Source: Callorhinchus milii
Lineage: Eukaryota
Direction: 5' to 3'
Assembly (NCBI RefSeq): GCF_018977255.1
Contig: NW_024704746.1
Location: 16,554,001 to 16,618,000, forward strand
Length of the DNA stretch: 64,000 bases
This document shows, piece after piece, positions 15,901 through 51,235 of this stretch. Positions within the stretch are counted from its first letter, which is position 1; every line of letters starts with the position of its first letter. The notes under the pieces are model-generated. The model was not told the origin of the DNA. It searched no databases and saw only the letters and a program-made list of their open reading frames with translations. The position numbers and the translations under genes are program-made.

Positions 15901-17156
15901 TCACCCAGCAACCACAAGGGAAATGGATAATTGTCGCACCTCTAATTTGCTGCTAGCTTGCGCTGAACGTTTATGAATTAGTTTTGGCAGAAATGCTTCA
16001 CTGCGCAGTTTTTGCTGGTTTTAAAAAAGGGGCATCATTAATTTCAAACAGCAGGTAACTACTGGCTTGTCACATGAAATGATACATGAAAAATGTCGTA
16101 GCTGCCAATCAGAAAGAGACAACGGGGGGGAAACCATTTTACTCAAACATCTGTTCAACGGCCACAGCACGCAAATTGTGAAAAATGAACTTTTTTTTAG
16201 CAAGATTAATAAAAATGTAGTTTAGTCGCAAAAATTCACAACGGTCACATTCTGCCATGATTAATAAGGCTGATACTGCCAGCTTGAAAATTCCTTTGAT
16301 TGTTCATATTGCTGCCTAACAACCAACAGAAATTGGGAGTGCAACATGATTTTGTAAAGTTATAATGAATACGTCTTTGTACAGACACCAACATAGAGCA
16401 AGAATTTTGCAGCAGGTCAGTCAACATCTGAAAGAGAAAGATAGATTCTTTTGAAGAATAACACCCTAAAACTATCCTCAATTTCTCTTTCAGATGCTGT
16501 TCGACACGCTGTGCATTTACAATATTTTCTGCTATTTTCAATCGTCAGCTTTTTTTTAAAAAAAATTCCAATGGATAGATTTGAGTTGGAATCAGTCTGT
16601 GGATTTTTTTTTACTTTTGCTTAATAGAAGCTCAAAATCAGCAAGGTTTATTTCCTACCTCCAATTTCCCTTTTTTTTACGAAGTGGAAGCTTAACACTA
16701 AACATAGTAATGATTACAGTGAAGATTTTGTGACTGATGAGGAAGATCTTAAACTTCAAGGGGTGGGGGGGGGGGGGAGAGCAGAAAAAATTGCGATGCA
16801 AGTCTGAGAATGAATATAAAGAACACCAAATGGAAATTCAAACTAAATGAAGAAATTCAACTCTTATCGGTCTCTCATCTTATAAGATTTCTGCACCGGC
16901 GTGTAGTTTAGGGACCACAAAATCCTGGTGCAAGTAATGATACATTCACTATTCCACCTGGAAAGTTATAAGTTGTTGCCAACAATGCATTACATTATAA
17001 ATCCAGTACTGTTTTAGTGCAAGGTGTAGGCTGGAGGAGTTAAAAGGAGCTTGGATGTACATTGGGCTCAAAATGAAACTCAGATAAGTTAAAACATTTC
17101 TCACGAAGAGGATAAATAGTACCGTGTAAGCAATTGAAAGTACATAGACATATTGA

Positions 17157-17465
17157 TAATAATCCTTGCATTTGATACAGTGGCTTATAATGTCATGATA
17201 TCTCAAGCTTCATAGAGCACAGCAATATCTCACAAACAGCCATGAAGTGAATGACTAATTTTTAAATTGGGGGGGGGGGGTTGCTAGCCAGGAAAGCAAA
17301 AAAAAACTCCTTTCTCTTTTTGAATCATTGCCATGGGATTTTTATCGTCCACCTGAACAGGAAGGCAGGAGCTTGGATTCATTTTTCACTCAATGACAGC
17401 CGTTCATATAATGCAGCACTTCCCCCAGTACTGTATTGGAATGTCAACCTTGGCTGTGAACTTCA
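17157..17465 (-). mobile_element. Degenerate DeuSINE-type fragment
   Basis: Tail ATAATCCTTGCATTTGATA plus Deu-like core. Confidence 0.65.
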
Positions 17466-17559
17466 CAGTTCAAAACTGGTCTTAAATATAAGGTAAATTG
17501 TAAATGAGCTCTGCTTCCACAATTCAATGTTTGCTCTTTCTTACACCTCATTATATTCA

Positions 17560-18620
17560 CAAACAGGATGAGTTTAAGATGGTAATTTTAGGTATTATTA
17601 AAGATTGGTGTGACGAGGAGAACCAAGTAAAACAGCATGGTAAAGCAAAAGGAGCTCTCCTAGACAGTGAGAAAGATGAAAGAAATACCTTATCTCAGCA
17701 AGATGTGCAAGAATTGAATAAAATAGCAAACCAAGCCAGCGGGGAAGAATAGTACAGAAGGGGTCGAGAAAGTAAATTTGATGCATGCAAAGAACAATAG
17801 ATTTTTCTGAGCTGCAGTACAAACAGGAATCCCAACAATGTTCATTGAACGGGTACTTTTGCTCTCTTTGAATGCCTAGGCAGGCAGGCGAAACAGGTGA
17901 AATGTCTGTCATTGAAACGATGACAATTAGGCAAAAGTTCTGCAGTGATGCAATTCAACATGATTTGCATAATGTGTAATAAAGCAAATTTTAAAAATGA
18001 TGTACGAAACACTGTCTTCCTGAAAATTATGGCTTTTTTTCCACAGGTAAACGGCTGATATTCCAAATAACTGGATGGGGTGGTGGGGGGGGGGTAGAGA
18101 TATATTATGTTAAATGTTCCAATACTTCAAAAGGATGAGAGAGATTTCGAAACATGGGAATGTACAGGACTGGAAAGGAGTACTGCAGTGCATCTGGACG
18201 GTCGGCACTACCAGTTACTAGAAAGAGTGGTTGTGAGACATGCAGGTTTAGGTGGGTTAGGAACAATAATAAAAAAAAGGCTTGATAGGCCTATGGTTTA
18301 GGCTGTCCTAAAAAAAATATTTTTGTGATTTTAAATGAAGTTTGCCGACTGAATAAACACAAATACTGCACCACCAAAAAGAGTTGGATTCCAGCGGATA
18401 TAACTCAACAATAAGGATTGAGCTGTAGAAGTGATAACCTTTGCAGGAATCCAATAAATTATAGGCAGCTTCAAAAAATGGCAAACATCCAGGAAGAGAT
18501 GAGCTTGAGCCAATATATTTGAGATTACGCAGTGAGAACAAACTCTACTCAGTACATAAAATTAGGAAAAACTCAAATTCAGAGTAAATGCCCACTCACT
18601 GCTCAAGCGTGATCATGGCT
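17560..18620 (+). mobile_element. Highly decayed CR1-like RT region
   Basis: Purine-rich patches with weak resemblance to CR1 ORF2 C-terminal coding; no intact motif. Confidence 0.35.
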
Positions 18621-20419
18621 TCATTACTTGAAATAAACCCTCCCAAGTTAACTGAAAGGTAACAATTATAAGGGATCAGTTTTCTTAGTGAACTAAGGAA
18701 AGTGTGTGGTAGCAATTTAGAAATACAAGTCCAAGCAAAATTACACAAGATAAGCTACGGAGGGAACAGTGTGGATTTAGGAGTAGCAAGGGATATGAAG
18801 AAGTGAGATTCCTCTTAAACAGGATATAGAAAAACATTTAAAATACGTACAGTTCAGCTAAGAGGAGTTAGGAAAAGCTTTCGATAGAGCCACTGGGATA
18901 AATATTTTTACTCTTTCATCAAATTACAGAATGAAAGGCTAATCACTAACTGGAACATAAATGGTCTCAATCAAAACACTATAATTATTCACTGTCCACT
19001 AGTTTGATACTAGCATATGTTTTTCTTCATTGATGTTCATTGTGCATGTATATATGCATGTATTTAGATGTGCATCTATGTTTTTATGAATCTACATTTG
19101 AGGAATCCCCTAAATCAGATGGAGAAGATTGAAACAAAGAATGCATTGCTGAATAAGAAATGAAGATTAGTGGACTTTGAAAAGTTTCAAACCTCACTCA
19201 GAAATGTTTAAAATTAATGAGCATTTCAGTGGAACACATGAGATCTCAGACCAGGCTTCAAGTGGCCTTGTGGGAGAGACAGCCCAGTGTAACTCATAAT
19301 CGTGCATTTGCACTGCAAATTACACTACTCCTCACAACACTTCCTGTAGAAGCAGGGCTCCAGTCACTGGCTCAATTTCCATTTATACTGCACATTTGGA
19401 AGTGAAGCACCACCATTACAGTAGTTTATCATCATGGTCACAGTGTAAATGTAGTATTCATACAAAGTAAACTAATGGGTCAGAATGCAATAGGTGAGAA
19501 TGAATCTAAAATGTCTCAACATTTAGGACTATGATATTCATGGGAAAGGGGGGAGGCATGTATCTACAGCTCTTGTTTGTCTAATGATTTGGAATAGATC
19601 CATAATCCTTAGTGGTCTCTGAAACCTCTGTGCATTACAATATTTGTTCCCAAATGTCTGCTTTTACGATGCATTTGTTGAATTCATTTAAATAGCCATC
19701 TCTGATGCCATTCCACTCTATCAATTGTCGTGCACAATAGACCAAAAAACTTTGGCAAAGGCTGAAATCAGCTATGAAAGTTCTACACATTGTGTGCAGT
19801 GAAAGCTGGCAAGGAACATTGTAATGTAAGTATTAATAATGAGGATATCAGGAAAGAATTTCACTTCAATTTAGTCAATGTTAAAGACTGAATTTTCAGT
19901 GGTAGGGTGATGTAAAGGATTTATTAATGAGCTATTGCTGAAAAGAAACGGGAAGGCTAATAAGTCAAGGAACAGATACTGAGAAGGGCCACATAAAAGA
20001 TTTATAGATTGTGCAGGTACAAATAGCCTGGCAAGTACGAAGATGTGGAGGCAATAACAAAACATCAAACACATACGCTTACCAGAGCTCTGCTAATGCT
20101 CTTATCTTGTCATCGGGTCAAGCATCTGATGTGAAGGAGGGCTTTTTTGAGCTCAGGACAAGCTACCCATGCTATATATTATCTTTAAATGTAAAATTAG
20201 TTTTATGTGATTTTCCTGTGTTTATTTTGGATATCAAATTTGATTTAATTTGTATCCCAACTCCCAAATATTTAGATGCAAAACAACCACAAGTCAGCGC
20301 AGACCAGTAAAGATAGGCTGATTTTCCATCTCGAAGCTATTTTTGCAGAAGTCTGCCAAACCTATGATGAATACTCTGTGCATGCCTCGTAAAACAAGAG
20401 TAGGGTAAAATAGTCTAAC

Positions 20420-31793: not shown

Positions 31794-32101
31794 AATGCTT
31801 AATAGGACAGTTAACAAAAAAATTTTGTCCATTCAATCACTTTACATTTAAAACACTCCAATATACCGGCAGTTTGAAAAGTGAGTTGATGTGAAGTATA
31901 ACTAGCAGGAGTGAGCTTTTTAAATGTTATTGTTTAAGATTAGTATCAGGCAGTCCTGCTGAATCAGCCTTTCAGCAGCATTTTTAAAAATTCACAGGAC
32001 AAGCTTAATGTCCTCAACAACAGAAAACACACTCTCGTACATTCCTTGGAAGAGACATTGAGCAGTACACTACAGAACTGCAGAAGCTGGAAGATCGTGT
32101 A

Positions 32102-32745
32102 ACAGCAACGACAATAAATTACATTTATATAGCGCCTTTCACATCAGGCGGACGTCCCAAGGCGCTGGACAGTAAAGGGTTTGCACCTGAGCTAGGGGTT
32201 GGAATCAAGAAGGGTGAAGGACAAAGGTGGTGGGGATGGGAAGATGACTAAAGGCATGGTCGAACAGGAAGGTCTTGAGACAGGCCTTGAAGGAGGCAAG
32301 GGAGGGAGCGACATGGAAGGGTTCTGGGAAGGAGTTCCAGAAAGTGCGGGGCAGGAAGCAAAGGGCTGAATGCTGATGGTGGAGCGGGCAGGGCAGGATA
32401 CGTGGAGCAGGCAAGTGCCTGCTGAGCAGAGGGAGCGGAGAGGTTGATAAAGGTATGGAGAAGACCATGGAGGCTTTTAAAATTGAGGTCAAGGATTTTG
32501 AACTTGATCCTCTGGGGGATGGGGAGCCAGTGAAGCCAGGCGAGGGTGATTGTTTAGTGCAGAAGAGGGCATGAGCTGCAGAGTTCTGAATAATCTGCAG
32601 CTTGTGGAGGGAAGTGTTGGGAAGTCTGGCGAGCAGGGAGTTAGCATAGTCAAGTGTGGAAGTAATAAAGGCATGGACGAGAGTCTCAGCAGCCTGAAGG
32701 GAGAGATAGCGGAGTGATCATGTAGAATTGCAAGGATTTTGTAAA
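32102..32745 (-). mobile_element. L2-clade LINE 3' fragment
   Basis: Minus-strand peptides LDYANSLL, LHKLQIIQNSAA, LHWLPI..RIKFKIL, WNSFP and SFKACLKTFLF, followed by tail GGCGCTATATAAATGTAATTTATTGT. Confidence 0.85.
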
Positions 32746-33499
32746 GCAAGATGTTTCCCAAACTGAAAGCTTTTTTTCTAAAGGAGGAACATACCAGCTG
32801 TAGTGTTGATTCCTTGAAGAAAATGCTGTCCCTTCAACCTTTTCACTAACAGTGTTTCAAACATACCCCTGAAAATAGTAGGTATTCTGTCCAAGAGTCA
32901 ATCGGGTGACGAAAAGATTGAACATATTCATAAGTGCATTAAAAAACCTACTTGTCCTTATACTATGCTACTTTAAGAATTACAGGAAGAAAGACAGAAA
33001 ATAATTGAATGGTGTTTTAAGACATAAGCCCTTTGATATCAATGCTTTGATCTTGCCAATCCTTTTGAGTTCATCCGAATAGAATTGTTATGTGAAAAAT
33101 TCTTCACTCTTCTTTGTTTCTTCAGAGGAAGGTATGATAAAAGGTTTAATTTCAAAGCGCTTGGCCTTTACATCAAATTGGAATTTTCCACAATGTTTTA
33201 CTCATCATTACTGCTAATTAAAGTGGTTGTCTCTCAGATAGTTGCATTCAGTTCAAAAAGCTACAAAAGGACTGAATTAAAATCAGATACATTGAAGGAC
33301 AGGACCCTCTACAAAGAAAGTCCAACAATATTCCGAAGGTTCATTATCTGCACAGGCGGACATTTAAAAGTGCAATTATGTTATATATCTCAACACTGAC
33401 ATAAACAAGGAGGCAACGACATCTAATATGATTGCCTTTTTTTTCTTTCCCCCTCCTCTCCTGAAGCACTGATTCATACTTGGGCATAATTCCATAGTT

Positions 33500-33812
33500 G
33501 ATAATAACCCTCTGGTACCTCACCCAATTGGCCATTCTTTACCTTTGAGAGTATTTAGTGAATGCCTGCAGGCTGCTCAGCAGTGGGAGCATCATATCTC
33601 AGCCCTATTGTGTTTCTCTCACACACACACACCAGCAAAAGTTACTGTCTAGTGATCATAATTAAATCCTCAGCTGATTTATCCTTTCTAGCCCAGAGAT
33701 ACTAGTATTTCCTGCAGTGACCGTAACACTCTCAACTGAGATCAGCTAATTCAGCACAGACTTGGTATCATATCAAATGGTGCCTTTACTCACCCAGCCA
33801 TCAGGAGCCCCA
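33500..33812 (-). mobile_element. Ancient tRNA-derived SINE of a second family (related pieces at ~9140-9440 +, 15260-15382 -, 40838-40922 -, 55050-55200 +)
   Basis: Recurrent motifs GTCTGTGCTGAATTAGCTGATCTCAG and AGAATGGCCA.TTGGG..AGGTACC are shared among these loci. Confidence 0.6.
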
Positions 33813-34104
33813 GGTATTTATTTTTAAACAAGCATAAAATGTCTCTAAATGGGCACACTCTTCCCATTCATCCTGATTAAAGGAACATTTGTTTTTTAAC
33901 ATTTTTAATGTGATGCCGAACTATTCTTTTGAACGAAGACAAGTTTTGGTGGAATAGTTTCCTTGATGTGTTTGCTATCAGGCAAGCTGCCTTTGGAATG
34001 AAAGAATGAATGAATGATGGATTTGAATAGTGCTCCCAGCACTTTGCTTCCCCAGAGTTAGGACAGTGAGACTCAACCTGAATCAACATGCATTGAACAC
34101 TAAC

Positions 34105-46476: not shown

Positions 46477-46808
46477 CTAGTTTGACAGAAAAGGAACAGT
46501 CTGTTATTGAGGTCAATAATGTCATCCACTAAATGAACCGTTGATAGGTGTAATATATATAAATACATATGTATTGTGGATCACTTCTAACTGAGCAAAG
46601 AGGATGAAAAACTTTTTCATTTTTTACAATAATTTAGCTGTATGAAGTATATAATGAAACAATCAGTTGAGAGCCCAGAGTGAGCTACATCCGGAGTGAG
46701 GCGAGGCCAGAGTGAGAAGGAATTGGGTGAGAGTGGGAATTAGGTGCAGAGGGGAAGTATATCTTCTAAACGACAATAATACAGGGATAAATAGAGTGAG
46801 AGGAGAGA

Positions 46809-47749
46809 ATGACCTGGCAGGTGATGTGTGAGGAATGTGGTATGTGGGAGTTGATGGAGGCAACCTGAGCCCGGGTGACTTCATCTGCAGCAAATGTCTG
46901 CAACTGAGGAAGCTCCAGCTTAGAATAGCTGAGCTGGAGCCTCAGGTGGAGACACTGCGCAGCATTAGAGATGGTGAGAGCTTCCTGGACAGTTTCATCC
47001 TGGAGCCAGACACTCCCACGAGTCCCAGGGAACATTTCCGTTGCCAGCCACGGACAGGACTGGGTGACGGTCAGACAGGCGCGTAAGGAGACCCGAAAGA
47101 GAGGGGCAGAGGAACCCCAGGCTTTAACCTTGTCCAAAAGGTATGAAATACTTGCAACCTGCATGGACAAGGAAGTCTGTGAGGAAGATGGGCAAACTTA
47201 CCCCAACACCTCCCCACACTGGTAATAGTCAGAAGGAATATAGTGGTAATTGGGGATGAGACAGTCAGGAAGACTGACGCACTTTTCTGCAGCCGTAGCA
47301 AGGAGACAAGAAGACTCTGTTGCCTTCCTGGGGCCAGGGTGAAGGATGTCACTTCTGGTCTGGAGAAAAATTTGAAGCAAGAGGGAGTGGATCCAATAGT
47401 TGTGATTCACATAGGGACCAATGATGTAGGTAGGACAGGTAGGGACGAGTTGAGGAGCAAGTTCCGGGAATTGGAAGTTAAGCTTAAGAGTAGAATTTCG
47501 AAGGTGTTAATATCGGGATTATTACCTGAGCCAGGGGCAAATTGGTACAAGCAAAAAAAAATTAAAGAACTGAATACCTGGCTAAAAGAATGGTGCGGAG
47601 GGCAGGGGTTTCACTTTACAGGCCACTGGCACCAGTATTGGGGGAGACAGGAGCTATTCCAAAGGAATGGACTCCACCTAAACAGCGCCGGGACAAATGT
47701 CCTGGCAATACGAATAAATAGGGAGGTAGACAGGGCTTTAAACTACTAA
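46809..47749 (+). pseudogene. CR1 ORF1 (CxxC..CxxC zinc finger + leucine zipper + SGNH/GDSL-like esterase), frameshifted
   Basis: MTWQVMCEECGMWE..., FICSKCLQLRKLQLRIAELE, VVIGDE.VR, CCLPGA, HIGTND, GLHLN..GT, ending RALNY*. Split over several frames. Confidence 0.9.
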
Positions 47750-50713
47750 GGGGGGGGGGAAATTCAATCACATGTAATCTGTCACAATTAAAATTAGGAC
47801 CGATGAAAGTGGGAGAGCAGATTAACCAGGGTGACGAGCAATGTGTGTCAAGCGGGGAAAGGAAGCCCAAGGATAGGGTACTGGTGAAAAGGACTAATAG
47901 CCCGAAGTCAGAATTAAAGGTGCTAGTTCCGAATGTGCGAAGCATTCGAAACAAGATAGATGAGTTAAATGCATAAATAGAAACAAACGGGTATAATCTG
48001 GTAGCCATCACCGAGACATGGTTACAGGGAGATCAAGGGTGGGAGCTAAATATTCCAGGGTATGTGGCGTATAGAAAAGATAGGCAATGTGGTAAACGAG
48101 GAGGGGGTGTGGCCCTGCTAATAAAGGATGGGATAAAAACAGTAGAGAGGAAAGATTTTAAAATCAGAAAAGCAGGAAGTAGAGTCAGTATGGGTAAAGG
48201 TACGTAACAACAAGGGGCAGAAAACTCTAGTGGGAGTAGTTTATAGACCCCCGAACAGCAGTCATGGTATCTCTCAAGGTATAAATCAGGAAATTAGCAG
48301 AGCATGCAGTAAAGGAAAATCATTAATTGTGGGTGATTTTAATCTGCACATAGATTTGGGCAACCAAATTGGGAAAAGTATGATAGAGGAAGAGTTTATA
48401 GCATGTATTAGGGATAATTACCTAGATCAGTGTGCCGAGGAGCCAAGCAGGGAACAGGCCTTGTTTTGTGCAATGAAGCAGGGCTGATCAGCAAACTGGA
48501 AATTAAGGCTCCTCTAGGGCAAAGTGATCATAATATGATGGAATTTAGCATTAAGTTAGAGAGATAAGTAGTTAAGTCCGAAGCAAAGGTTTTAAATTTA
48601 AGTAGAGCCAATTTTGCTGGTATGAGAGAGGATTTAGCCAAAATAAACTGGGAAATTAGACTTAAGGATTTGACAGTAGACCAGCAATGGCAGACGTTTA
48701 AGGAGATAGTGCAAAATTCCCAGCGAGCACGTATTCCTTTGAGGAATAAGAATGCCACGGGAAAGGTGGCCCAACCGTGGCTAACTAGAGCAGTTAGGGA
48801 AAGTATAAAGTTAAAGGAAGAAGCCTATAAAACAGCTAAGATGAGTAGTAAACCTGAGGATTGGGAGAACTTTAGGGATCAACAAAGGAGAACCAAAAAA
48901 GTGATTAAGAGGGAGAAAATGGAATATGAGGGCAAACTAGCAAAGAACATAAAGACAGACTGCAAGAGTTTTTATAAATATATAAAGAGGAAGAGGCTGT
49001 CAAAGGTAAATGTGGGTCCGCTACAGGCAGAGACGGGGGAATTATAGTAGGGGACAAAGACATGGCAGAGTCATTAAACAAGTACTTTGCCACTGTCTTC
49101 ACCTTAGAAGACACTGAAAACCTACCAAGAATAGAGGGGAACCAAGAAGACAAATGTTAGCGAGCAACTTGGGGGAATTAATATTAGTAAAGAAATGGTT
49201 TTAGGTAAATTGTCAGGTCTTAAAACTGATAAATCTCCTGGACCTGATGGCCTACATCCTAGGGTTTTAAAAGAGGTGGCTACTGAGATAGTGGATGGCT
49301 TGTCTTTGATCTTCCAAAATTCTCTGGATTCTGGAACGGTTCCCATTGATTGGAAGATTGCAAACGTAACACCACTATTTAAGAAGGGTGGGAGAGAAAA
49401 GATGGGGAACTATAGACCAGTTAGTCTGACATCAGTGGTAGGGAAAATTCTTGAGTCCTTAATTAAAGATGTTGTTATGGGATTCCTGGAAGACCATAAC
49501 AAGATTAGGCAGAGTCAACATGGCTTTACAAAAGGGAAGTCATGCTTAACTAATCTTTTAGAGTTTTTTGAAGATGTATCTAGCAGGTTAGATAGGGGGG
49601 AACCAGTAGATGTAGTATATTTAGATTTTAAAAAGGCATTTGACAAAGTGTCACGCAAAAGGCTATTGCACAAGGTTAAGGCCCACGGGATTAATGGGAA
49701 CATGGATCGAAGAGTGGCTAACAGGTAGAAAACAGAGAGTAGGGATAAACGGGTCATTCTCGAATTGGCAGGATGTGACTAGTGGAGTGCCACAAGGATC
49801 AGTGCTTGGGCCTCAGCTATTTACAATTTACATCAATGATCTAGACGAGGACATTGAATGTAACGTATCTAAATCCGCGGATGACACTAAACTAGGTGGG
49901 AGAGTAAGCTCTGAGGATGATGCAAAAAGATTGCAACGGGATATAGATAGGCTAGCGGAGTGGACGAGAAGGTGGCAGATGGAATTTAATGTGGGGAAGT
50001 GTGAAGTTATTCACCTAGGTAGAAAAAATATAAAAACAGATTCTTTTCTAGAGGGGGAGACATTAGATAGTGTTAGTGTTCAGAGGGATTTGGGTGTCCT
50101 TGTACACCAGTCTCAAAAAGTTAGTTTGCAGGTGCAGCAAGCAACTAAGAAGGCGAACGGCATGTTAGCGTTCATTGCAAAAGGTTTAGAGTACAAGAGT
50201 AGGGAAGTCTTGCTGCAACTGTATAGGGCCTTGGTGAGACCGCACCTAGAGTATTGTGTGCAGTTTTGGTCTCCTTATTTAAAAAAGGACATACTTGCCC
50301 TAGAGGGGGTGCAGCGTAGATTCACTCGGTTAGTTCCTGGGATGAGGGGACTGACCTATGAGGATAGGCTGAATAAACTAAGGCTATATTCTCTAGAGTA
50401 CAGAAGAATTAGGGGAGATCTTATTGAAACATGTAAGATTCTTAAAGGGCTGGATAAAGTAGACACTGAGGGTCTGTTTCCCCTGGTAGGAGAATCTATA
50501 ACCAGGGGTCACAGTCTTAAAATTAAGGGTCAGCCTTTTAGAACAGAGTTGAGGAAACATTTCTTCACTCAGAGGGTAGTGAATTTATGGAATTCACTAC
50601 CTCAGAAGGCTGTAGGTGCTCAGTCCTTGAACATCTTCAAGGCTGAGACTGATAGATTTTTTAAAAATAGAGGGATTAGGGGATATGGGGATAGGGCAGG
50701 TAATTCGAGTTAG
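47737..50713 (+). pseudogene. CR1 ORF2 (AP endonuclease + reverse transcriptase), disrupted
   Basis: N.RS..NK, AITETWL, GVVYRPP, GDFN, SDH, KSPGPDG, NYRPVSLTS, YLDF.KAFD, GVPQGSVLGP, SADDTKL. Premature TAA at 47974-47976 and several frameshifts. Confidence 0.93.
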
Positions 50714-51235
50714 GTCTGAAGATCAGTCATGATCTTATCAAATGGCGGGGCAGGCTCGAGGGGTGGAATGGTCAACTCCTGCTCCTAATTCTTATGTTCT
50801 TATGTTGGTACAATAAAACTAACTTCTGCAGCTAATAGAGGTAAGCTACTACAATCTGGGTGTCAGTTTAGATTGCTGGCATTGAAGTACAATCTGTAAA
50901 CTTCAGATCAAATTCTCAGCTGCCTTCTACAATACAAGTAGATGATACCTAGAAGTTACAGAAGGGCGAATAGACTACTGTGTTTATAAACCTATTCATG
51001 GTGTACGTTCTGTTTATTGTTTTAACAGTGTAAAATGTACAGAAAGTGGATTTAGATGTGAAATTGTAATATTGAAATACAATTTCTCAAAAAAAATCCA
51101 CAAGATTTGTCATCAAAAGTATCTCTACAACACCATAACACTGATGTTTTCATTACAAACATTTTTCATTGTGTTATTGTACTTAAAGGGTTACTATACC
51201 TTGTTTCAATCACAATATATAAGCAAAGTCGTTAC

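Follow-up and report, generated by a model that had tools for sequence, protein, structure and literature searches.

CR1 is the dominant repeat in birds, reptiles, and cartilaginous fish. Vertebrate CR1 elements of type IV combine an ORF1 carrying a zinc finger/leucine zipper plus an esterase, and an ORF2 with an APE endonuclease and a reverse transcriptase (RT) (PMC4120745, in part). The element described here has the same architecture, and the available part of that survey has no occurrence of either 'frameshift' or 'overlap'. In the Dictyostelium LINEs TRE5-A and TRE3-A, ORF2 is stated to require a -1 frameshift (PMC5911963, in part), so LINE frameshifting is not without precedent. These are also APE-type LINEs with a -1 shift for ORF2 (PMC5911963, in part); however, they are L1-related and amoebal, whereas here a vertebrate CR1 is concerned, with an esterase ORF1, a stop codon adjoining the heptamer, and a G run. 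In L1 (63-nt spacer) and SART1 (overlapping stop-start), ORF2 is made as a separate protein by termination-reinitiation (PMC5972666, in part); these elements share with CR1 a bicistronic LINE RNA and a low output of ORF2. The retroviral gag-pol and coronavirus 1a/1b cassettes resemble the CR1 junction in the X-XXY-YYZ heptamer, a structural protein in the first ORF, and a polymerase in the -1 frame. They differ from it in that the CR1 junction lacks a conserved stem-loop or pseudoknot past the spacer. U_UUA_AAC is one of the heptamers at which mammalian ribosomes shift most readily, and natural G-quadruplex stimulators were not known as of 2016 (PMC5009743, in part). CR1 is absent from the available part of that recoding review, and a CR1 frameshift is not mentioned in the available parts of PMC4120745, PMC11835228, PMC4255032, PMC5633606, and PMC12846837. 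No report of one was found by literature search over such partial texts; an older remark in the primary CR1, SART1, L1, or DRE papers is possible.

The junction considered here lies in a stretch of 64,000 nucleotides of Callorhinchus milii (assembly GCF_018977255.1, contig NW_024704746.1, positions 16,554,001 to 16,618,000 of the forward strand), called the window below. Its features, numbered from the first letter of the window, are as follows.

46669..50806, + strand: CR1-type LINE copy of family A, near full-length and decayed (blastn against other natural copies, 46662/46669-50806; Pfam esterase, endonuclease, and RT)
46809..47749, + strand: ORF1 (zinc finger/coiled coil plus SGNH esterase, PF13472), broken here, with the C-terminus ...RALNY*
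47719..47721, + strand: TAG closing the -1 frame five codons 5' of the heptamer, with no intervening ATG (five-codon spacing in 40/43 family-A copies, an ATG in none)
47737..47743, + strand: U-UUA-AAC, a heptamer of the slippery type that is in phase with ORF1 (X-XXY-YYZ)
47747..47749, + strand: ORF1 stop TAA, one codon past the heptamer (immediately after it in most other families)
47750..47759, + strand: G run, G10 in this copy, a candidate stimulator
47760..47913, + strand: linker, stop-free in the ORF2 frame, with no amino-acid constraint detected
47803..47805, + strand: in-frame ATG peculiar to family A (sister family B has ACA here, and 7/43 A copies have ATA)
47914..50713, + strand: ORF2 endonuclease and RT, broken in this copy (first stop at 47974)
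50788..50806, + strand: short tandem repeat at the 3' terminus of the element

The CR1 LINE copy in the window is dead. Its ORF1 is spread over two frames when compared with the protein P0012, and its ORF2 has seven stops and several frame changes. All the features of the class are present, namely an esterase ORF1, an ORF2 with APE endonuclease and RT, a short tandem 3' end, and many dispersed copies. The ORF1 esterase gives a profile match to the ORF1 esterase of PDB 4C1B (E 1e-37). Placement in CR1 is indicated by ORF1 relatives from sharks, rays, turtles, a snake, and a swallow; the named ORF1 proteins nearest to the families of this genome come from cartilaginous fish.

The original prediction proposed, from the window alone, that a programmed -1 frameshift joins ORF1 to ORF2 at this heptamer. 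The letters on which it was based are all in place: the TAG at 47719-47721, TTTAAAC at 47737-47743 within GCT TTA AAC TAC TAA, the stop at 47747-47749, the 6-nt spacer, the G10 run, and the ATG at 47803. The -1 frame (47722-47976) reaches the start of the endonuclease and terminates at the TAA at 47974. TTTAAAC by itself is common in the window (9 + 13 matches). What goes beyond chance is the position of the heptamer and its conservation across families, not its mere occurrence. Since a mechanism cannot be demonstrated from a single dead copy, the families of the genome were compared.

Genome searches gave 210 loci, 207 of them with the end of ORF1 and 168 remaining after a duplicate filter; 159 of the copies fall into 11 clusters, treated as ten families, A to J. 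The filter removed 39 loci whose 120-nt junctions were identical; some of these were probably distinct family-B loci, and family B was therefore recounted from 53 places, among the matches listed (100 of 118). The exact T-TTA-AAC is found in 133/159 clustered copies and is the commonest state at the ORF1 end in nine of the ten families (A 39/44, B 16/16, C 13/20 plus 2/2, D 3/7, E 23/25, G 9/10, H 24/28, I 2/2, J 2/2, F 0/3). Family F comprises only three decayed copies, each with its own one or two changes in the heptamer. On recounting, 52 of the 53 family-B copies among the matches listed keep it. TCTAAAC occurs in 4/159 copies, and among the listed contigs from four sequencing runs that span the junction no variant inside the heptamer was found. 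A heptamer-less subfamily is not supported, as two of the copies (L093 and L097) are one duplicated 837-nt piece, 97% identical.

The codon ahead of TTA is GCT, AAT, GAT, GGT, CGT, TGT, or GTT; it specifies five or more amino acids across families, with T always last. The heptamer is followed by TAG, TAA, TGA, or TAC TAA, depending upon the family. The last 57 ORF1 codons of seven families served as a control: of 13 invariant degenerate codons one is identically spelled, and of 40 variable codons three have a third base in common, while the three heptamer codons all pass. With family F included the AAC test fails, on the decayed copies of that family. The nucleotides rather than Leu-Asn are under constraint. 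The nucleotide-level conservation that a slippery site would call for is thus found, the synonymous positions being fixed across families. The junction signal is, as judged by comparing copies, real and conserved across families.

The ends of related ORF1 proteins extend the comparison. Among those with an intact end, 73/110 finish in a dipeptide compatible with X-XXY-YYZ (LN 60, GN 9, KN 3, GF 1). The residue before LN is one lacking a T-ending codon in 1/60 cases, against a background of 56/360 nearby. Q stands before GN in 8/9 ends, which is compatible with G-GGA-AAC. The distant ends in Q-GN, KN, and FF/GF, known from protein alone, would fit other slippery heptamers. The LN-ending proteins are from turtles, a snake, a swallow, an eel, and a ray; those ending in GN, KN, or FF carry no taxon. 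The covariation at the ORF1 end is clumped by clade, and the protein rows are related to each other.

A fixed -1 offset of ORF2 from ORF1 was one of the checks named in the original prediction. Measured across the G run, the register is -1 in 20/21 copies of family C, 6/7 of D, 21/25 of E, and 9/10 of G, at modal distances from heptamer to endonuclease of 173, 173, 119, and 110 nt, respectively. In all four of these families the G run is short and interrupted. The register is random, on the other hand, in A, B, and H. It is -1 in 16/43 copies of A (16/45 among the listed pattern matches) and in 12/27 of H, and in B, among the matches listed, 18 copies are in -1, 18 in 0, and 17 in +1 (n=53). 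The younger half of B, among the same matches, has 9/24 copies in -1, and of its copies with ORF2 open for at least 900 codons 1/5 is in -1, the sole full-length one being in 0. All three contigs that bridge the B junction are out of the -1 register (+7, +5, and +5); their source runs are guessed to be RNA. Thus the fixed offset stands for C, D, E, and G and does not for A, B, and H. The register of the window copy itself is weak evidence, since the G run varies among copies of its family and its being -1 is a matter of one-in-three luck.

The length of the G run varies widely in A, B, and H and is fixed, with interruptions, in C, D, E, G, and the bird-like copies described below. The modal length, 12 in A and 7 in B, gives the -1 register in both, an enrichment that is not significant. 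Such length noise is to be expected, since homopolymers within the coding parts of these elements are unstable as well: an A9 in ORF1 is off its mode in 16/36 copies, and a G7 and a G6 in 9/23 (endonuclease) and 6/25, respectively. Past the G run, a span of 32-57 codons in the ORF2 frame is free of shared stops in families A, B, C, D, E, H, and I, and each of the other two frames has 1-10 of them over the same stretch; the chance of such an open linker is 0.005-0.08 per family. Family G was left out of this count, as the copies chosen for it carry an indel. A pN/pS of about 1 for the linker favors none of the frames, and no amino-acid constraint was detected in it.

Outside this genome, a metagenome scan with an alignment of amniote-type ORF1 gave 53 loci. 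Sixteen bird-like copies, with a swallow ORF1 as best match, extend to the end of ORF1, and 12/16 have the exact heptamer, usually followed by TAG and a G-rich run resembling that of families C and G. The endonuclease could be located in 12 of the bird-like copies, and in half of these (L113, L114, L115, L117, L120, and L130) the path from heptamer to endonuclease is open in the -1 frame only, over linkers of 92, 134, 245, 92, 92, and 125 nt. The first five of these copies are 57-73% identical among themselves. The remaining six are in other registers, all with stops or deletions. As families share ancestry (C and D have the same length), the independent trials of the register number about three in this genome plus three or four bird-like lengths. 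Scans of viral sequences, bacterial genomes, and plasmids gave nothing usable.

Start codons for ORF2 are scarce. Families B and I have no ATG ahead of the endonuclease, and in C, D, and E a Met lies only three codons ahead of the first conserved Asn. A single B copy keeps the ORF2 frame open throughout, and it has no Met until codon 264, beyond the endonuclease. Family A has one in-frame ATG and family H several. The ATG at 47803, noted originally as an alternative entry to ORF2, is thus present in family A but specific to it, a Thr codon (ACA) taking its place in the young sister family B, and a usable ATG is lacking altogether from several families. An ATA-for-ATG subfamily within A was not supported, the seven copies being scattered on a poorly resolved tree. 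No AUG overlaps or adjoins the ORF1 stop, as in coupling of the SART1/UAAUG type, in families A-E, G, H, I, and J. An ATG near the stop is found only in some bird-like copies. Because the linker is stop-free and an ATG is lacking, ribosomes appear to enter ORF2 close to the ORF1 stop and without the use of an AUG.

Such entry could also be of the L1 type, by AUG-independent termination-reinitiation. Ribosomes would restart near the ORF1 stop, TTTAAAC, the stop, and the G run would together be the restart signal, and ORF2p would be a separate protein. There is precedent for such tolerance, since the AUG of human L1 ORF2 can be replaced by any sense codon (PMC1965478, in part) and caliciviral restart also tolerates changes of the start codon (PMC5972666, in part). 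A restart would account for the stop-free linker without ATG, for the free length of the G run in A, B, and H, and for the ATG 2 nt past the stop in L113, L114, L115, and L117. However, the position of that ATG is taken by TCG or TTG in L120, L129, and families C, D, E, and G, and the codons overlapping the stop vary between families. Reinitiation also leaves unexplained the exact X-XXY-YYZ spelling in phase with ORF1, the covariation of the heptamer at distant ORF1 ends, and the -1 register over linkers of differing length. We regard it as unlikely, though as the likeliest of the rivals.

The random register in A, B, and H bears on a second rival, in which the -1 shift is ancestral and used by the families with a short G run, while the register has been relaxed in the clade of A, B, F, H, and I. 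The relaxation would come from polymerase slippage on the pure G run, giving mRNAs of all frames, or from reinitiation (in A, at the ATG at 47803). This mixed state agrees with the randomness of G-run length among near-identical B copies and with the lack of bias to -1 in copies with an intact ORF2, as well as with the in-frame ATG in A and the several in H. Against it, the heptamer is still present in A, B, H, and I, there is no ATG in B and I, and the modal G-run lengths in A and B are the -1 lengths, with the reservation on significance given above. We consider it improbable. The frameshift reading is less secure for the window's own family than for CR1 generally. Near-identical B copies already differ in register, so that roughly two in three new copies would be left without ORF2 if frameshifting were the route.

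A role of Leu-Asn in ORF1p, with the DNA motif acting in the packaging of RNA, the binding of ORF1p, splicing, or as an internal promoter, would suit a G run conserved past a stop codon without a conserved fold, as a protein-binding site might be, but is very improbable given the fixed synonymous positions, an LN that need not stand last (A and B have LNY; CAG takes the place of the stop in 6/25 E copies) and that gives way to GN, KN, or FF in relatives, and, for a splice acceptor, an AG that is not conserved (TAA, TGA, or TAC after the heptamer).

The best explanation of the junction is, in our view, that active elements of this CR1 group probably make an ORF1-ORF2 fusion by programmed -1 frameshifting at U-UUA-AAC, a reading drawn from comparison of natural copies. 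Ribosomes would slip one base back at the heptamer just ahead of the ORF1 stop, presumably by tandem slippage of tRNA-Leu and tRNA-Asn, and the predicted junction in the window copy would read ...RALN-LLRGG... The product would be a rare fusion of ORF1, linker, endonuclease, and RT alongside abundant ORF1p. The G run of families A, B, and H is now a pure, hypermutable homopolymer, which would leave only about one third of genomic copies in register. The heptamer is kept letter for letter from cartilaginous fish to birds, which argues that the RT gene, often without a start codon, is likely made via a -1 slip. The original prediction is partly supported. Its main proposal, the -1 shift, gains strong comparative support from the heptamer, the register in four families and several bird-like lineages, a linker free of stops, and the absence of a usable ATG from several families; the register of the single copy was weak evidence, the G-quadruplex is a candidate stimulator, and the fusion protein is a prediction.

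What would stimulate the slip is a separate matter. A G-quadruplex had been suggested for the window copy, but its G10 is not folded as one by ViennaRNA, which finds a quadruplex in 4/21 folded copies. Neither is there a conserved hairpin. A conserved Watson-Crick stimulator is absent, with z between +1.2 and +2.1 for families A and B and scattered values elsewhere, in predictions that did not explicitly include pseudoknots. The sole downstream feature shared by all families is the G run, which begins 7-11 nt past the heptamer. The pause would probably come from the adjacent stop codon and/or the G run (as a quadruplex or by way of a G-run-binding protein) rather than from a hairpin or pseudoknot.

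How CR1 ORF2 is translated is not addressed in the available parts of the literature found, and a conserved -1 site makes the question testable. If frameshifting is the answer, the reverse transcriptase would be born fused to the esterase/coiled-coil ORF1p, with a bearing on RNP assembly and cis preference, and also on the annotation of CR1 ORF2, since many families lack a real start codon. The junction may also be a natural case of a hairpin-free stimulator consisting of a G run or a stop codon. A wider reading, which we offer only tentatively, is that esterase-ORF1 LINEs are Gag-Pol-like, with ORF1 and ORF2 fused by recoding in vertebrates and distant relatives. CR1 would then use the -1 slip, with covarying heptamers and a structure-free stop-plus-G-run stimulator more than 400 million years old, and its sister groups UGA-C readthrough, a division comparable to that between frameshift and readthrough in retroviruses.

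In the searched genome (G000), the young sister family B of the window's own CR1 family (family A) is very recent, its copies (L268-L320) being only 0.4-3% apart and some nearly identical. The G run downstream of the heptamer (T-TTA-AAC, the proposed -1 frameshift site beside the ORF1 stop) varies greatly in length among these copies, and T, A or C interruptions accumulate in it far faster than in the flanks. The ORF2 frame ends at codon 903-906 in four family B copies and extends to codon 976 in one.

Of the 43 family A copies, 7 have ATA in place of the ATG that lies in the ORF2 frame between the heptamer and the endonuclease (window 47803-47805). These 7 do not group together on the tree, and their share is high for a non-CpG site. 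Because family B has ACA at this position, the ATG may have been derived from ACG through CpG decay. Elsewhere in the window, positions 16001-20000 and 32001-34000 have a strong G and A skew, resembling the LINE at 46-50 kb, and are probably additional LINE copies.

In family E, CAG replaces the ORF1 stop after the heptamer in six of 25 copies in G000 (including L095, L096 and L107), which possibly form a subfamily. This ORF1 would gain about 10 codons, with the -1 frame still open. In a distant clade of ORF1 proteins (P0075, P0104, P0108, P0109, P0118, P0128, P0130, P0135 and P0145), Lys-Asn occupies the position of the heptamer-encoded Leu-Asn, and 2-12 further residues precede the stop, an arrangement consistent with an A-AAA-AAC site and a longer overlap.

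The heptamer is absent at the ORF1 end of more distant esterase-ORF1 LINE loci (L161, L162, L150, L151 and L160). There, ORF1 terminates with TGA followed by C (CTC, CTG, CTA or CCT), and the same reading frame is still open past the TGA; in L161 it reaches the endonuclease without any Met. TGA-C with a continued open frame was not seen in locus L158. The pattern at the five loci resembles UGA-C readthrough, which would be a second route to ORF1-ORF2 fusion.
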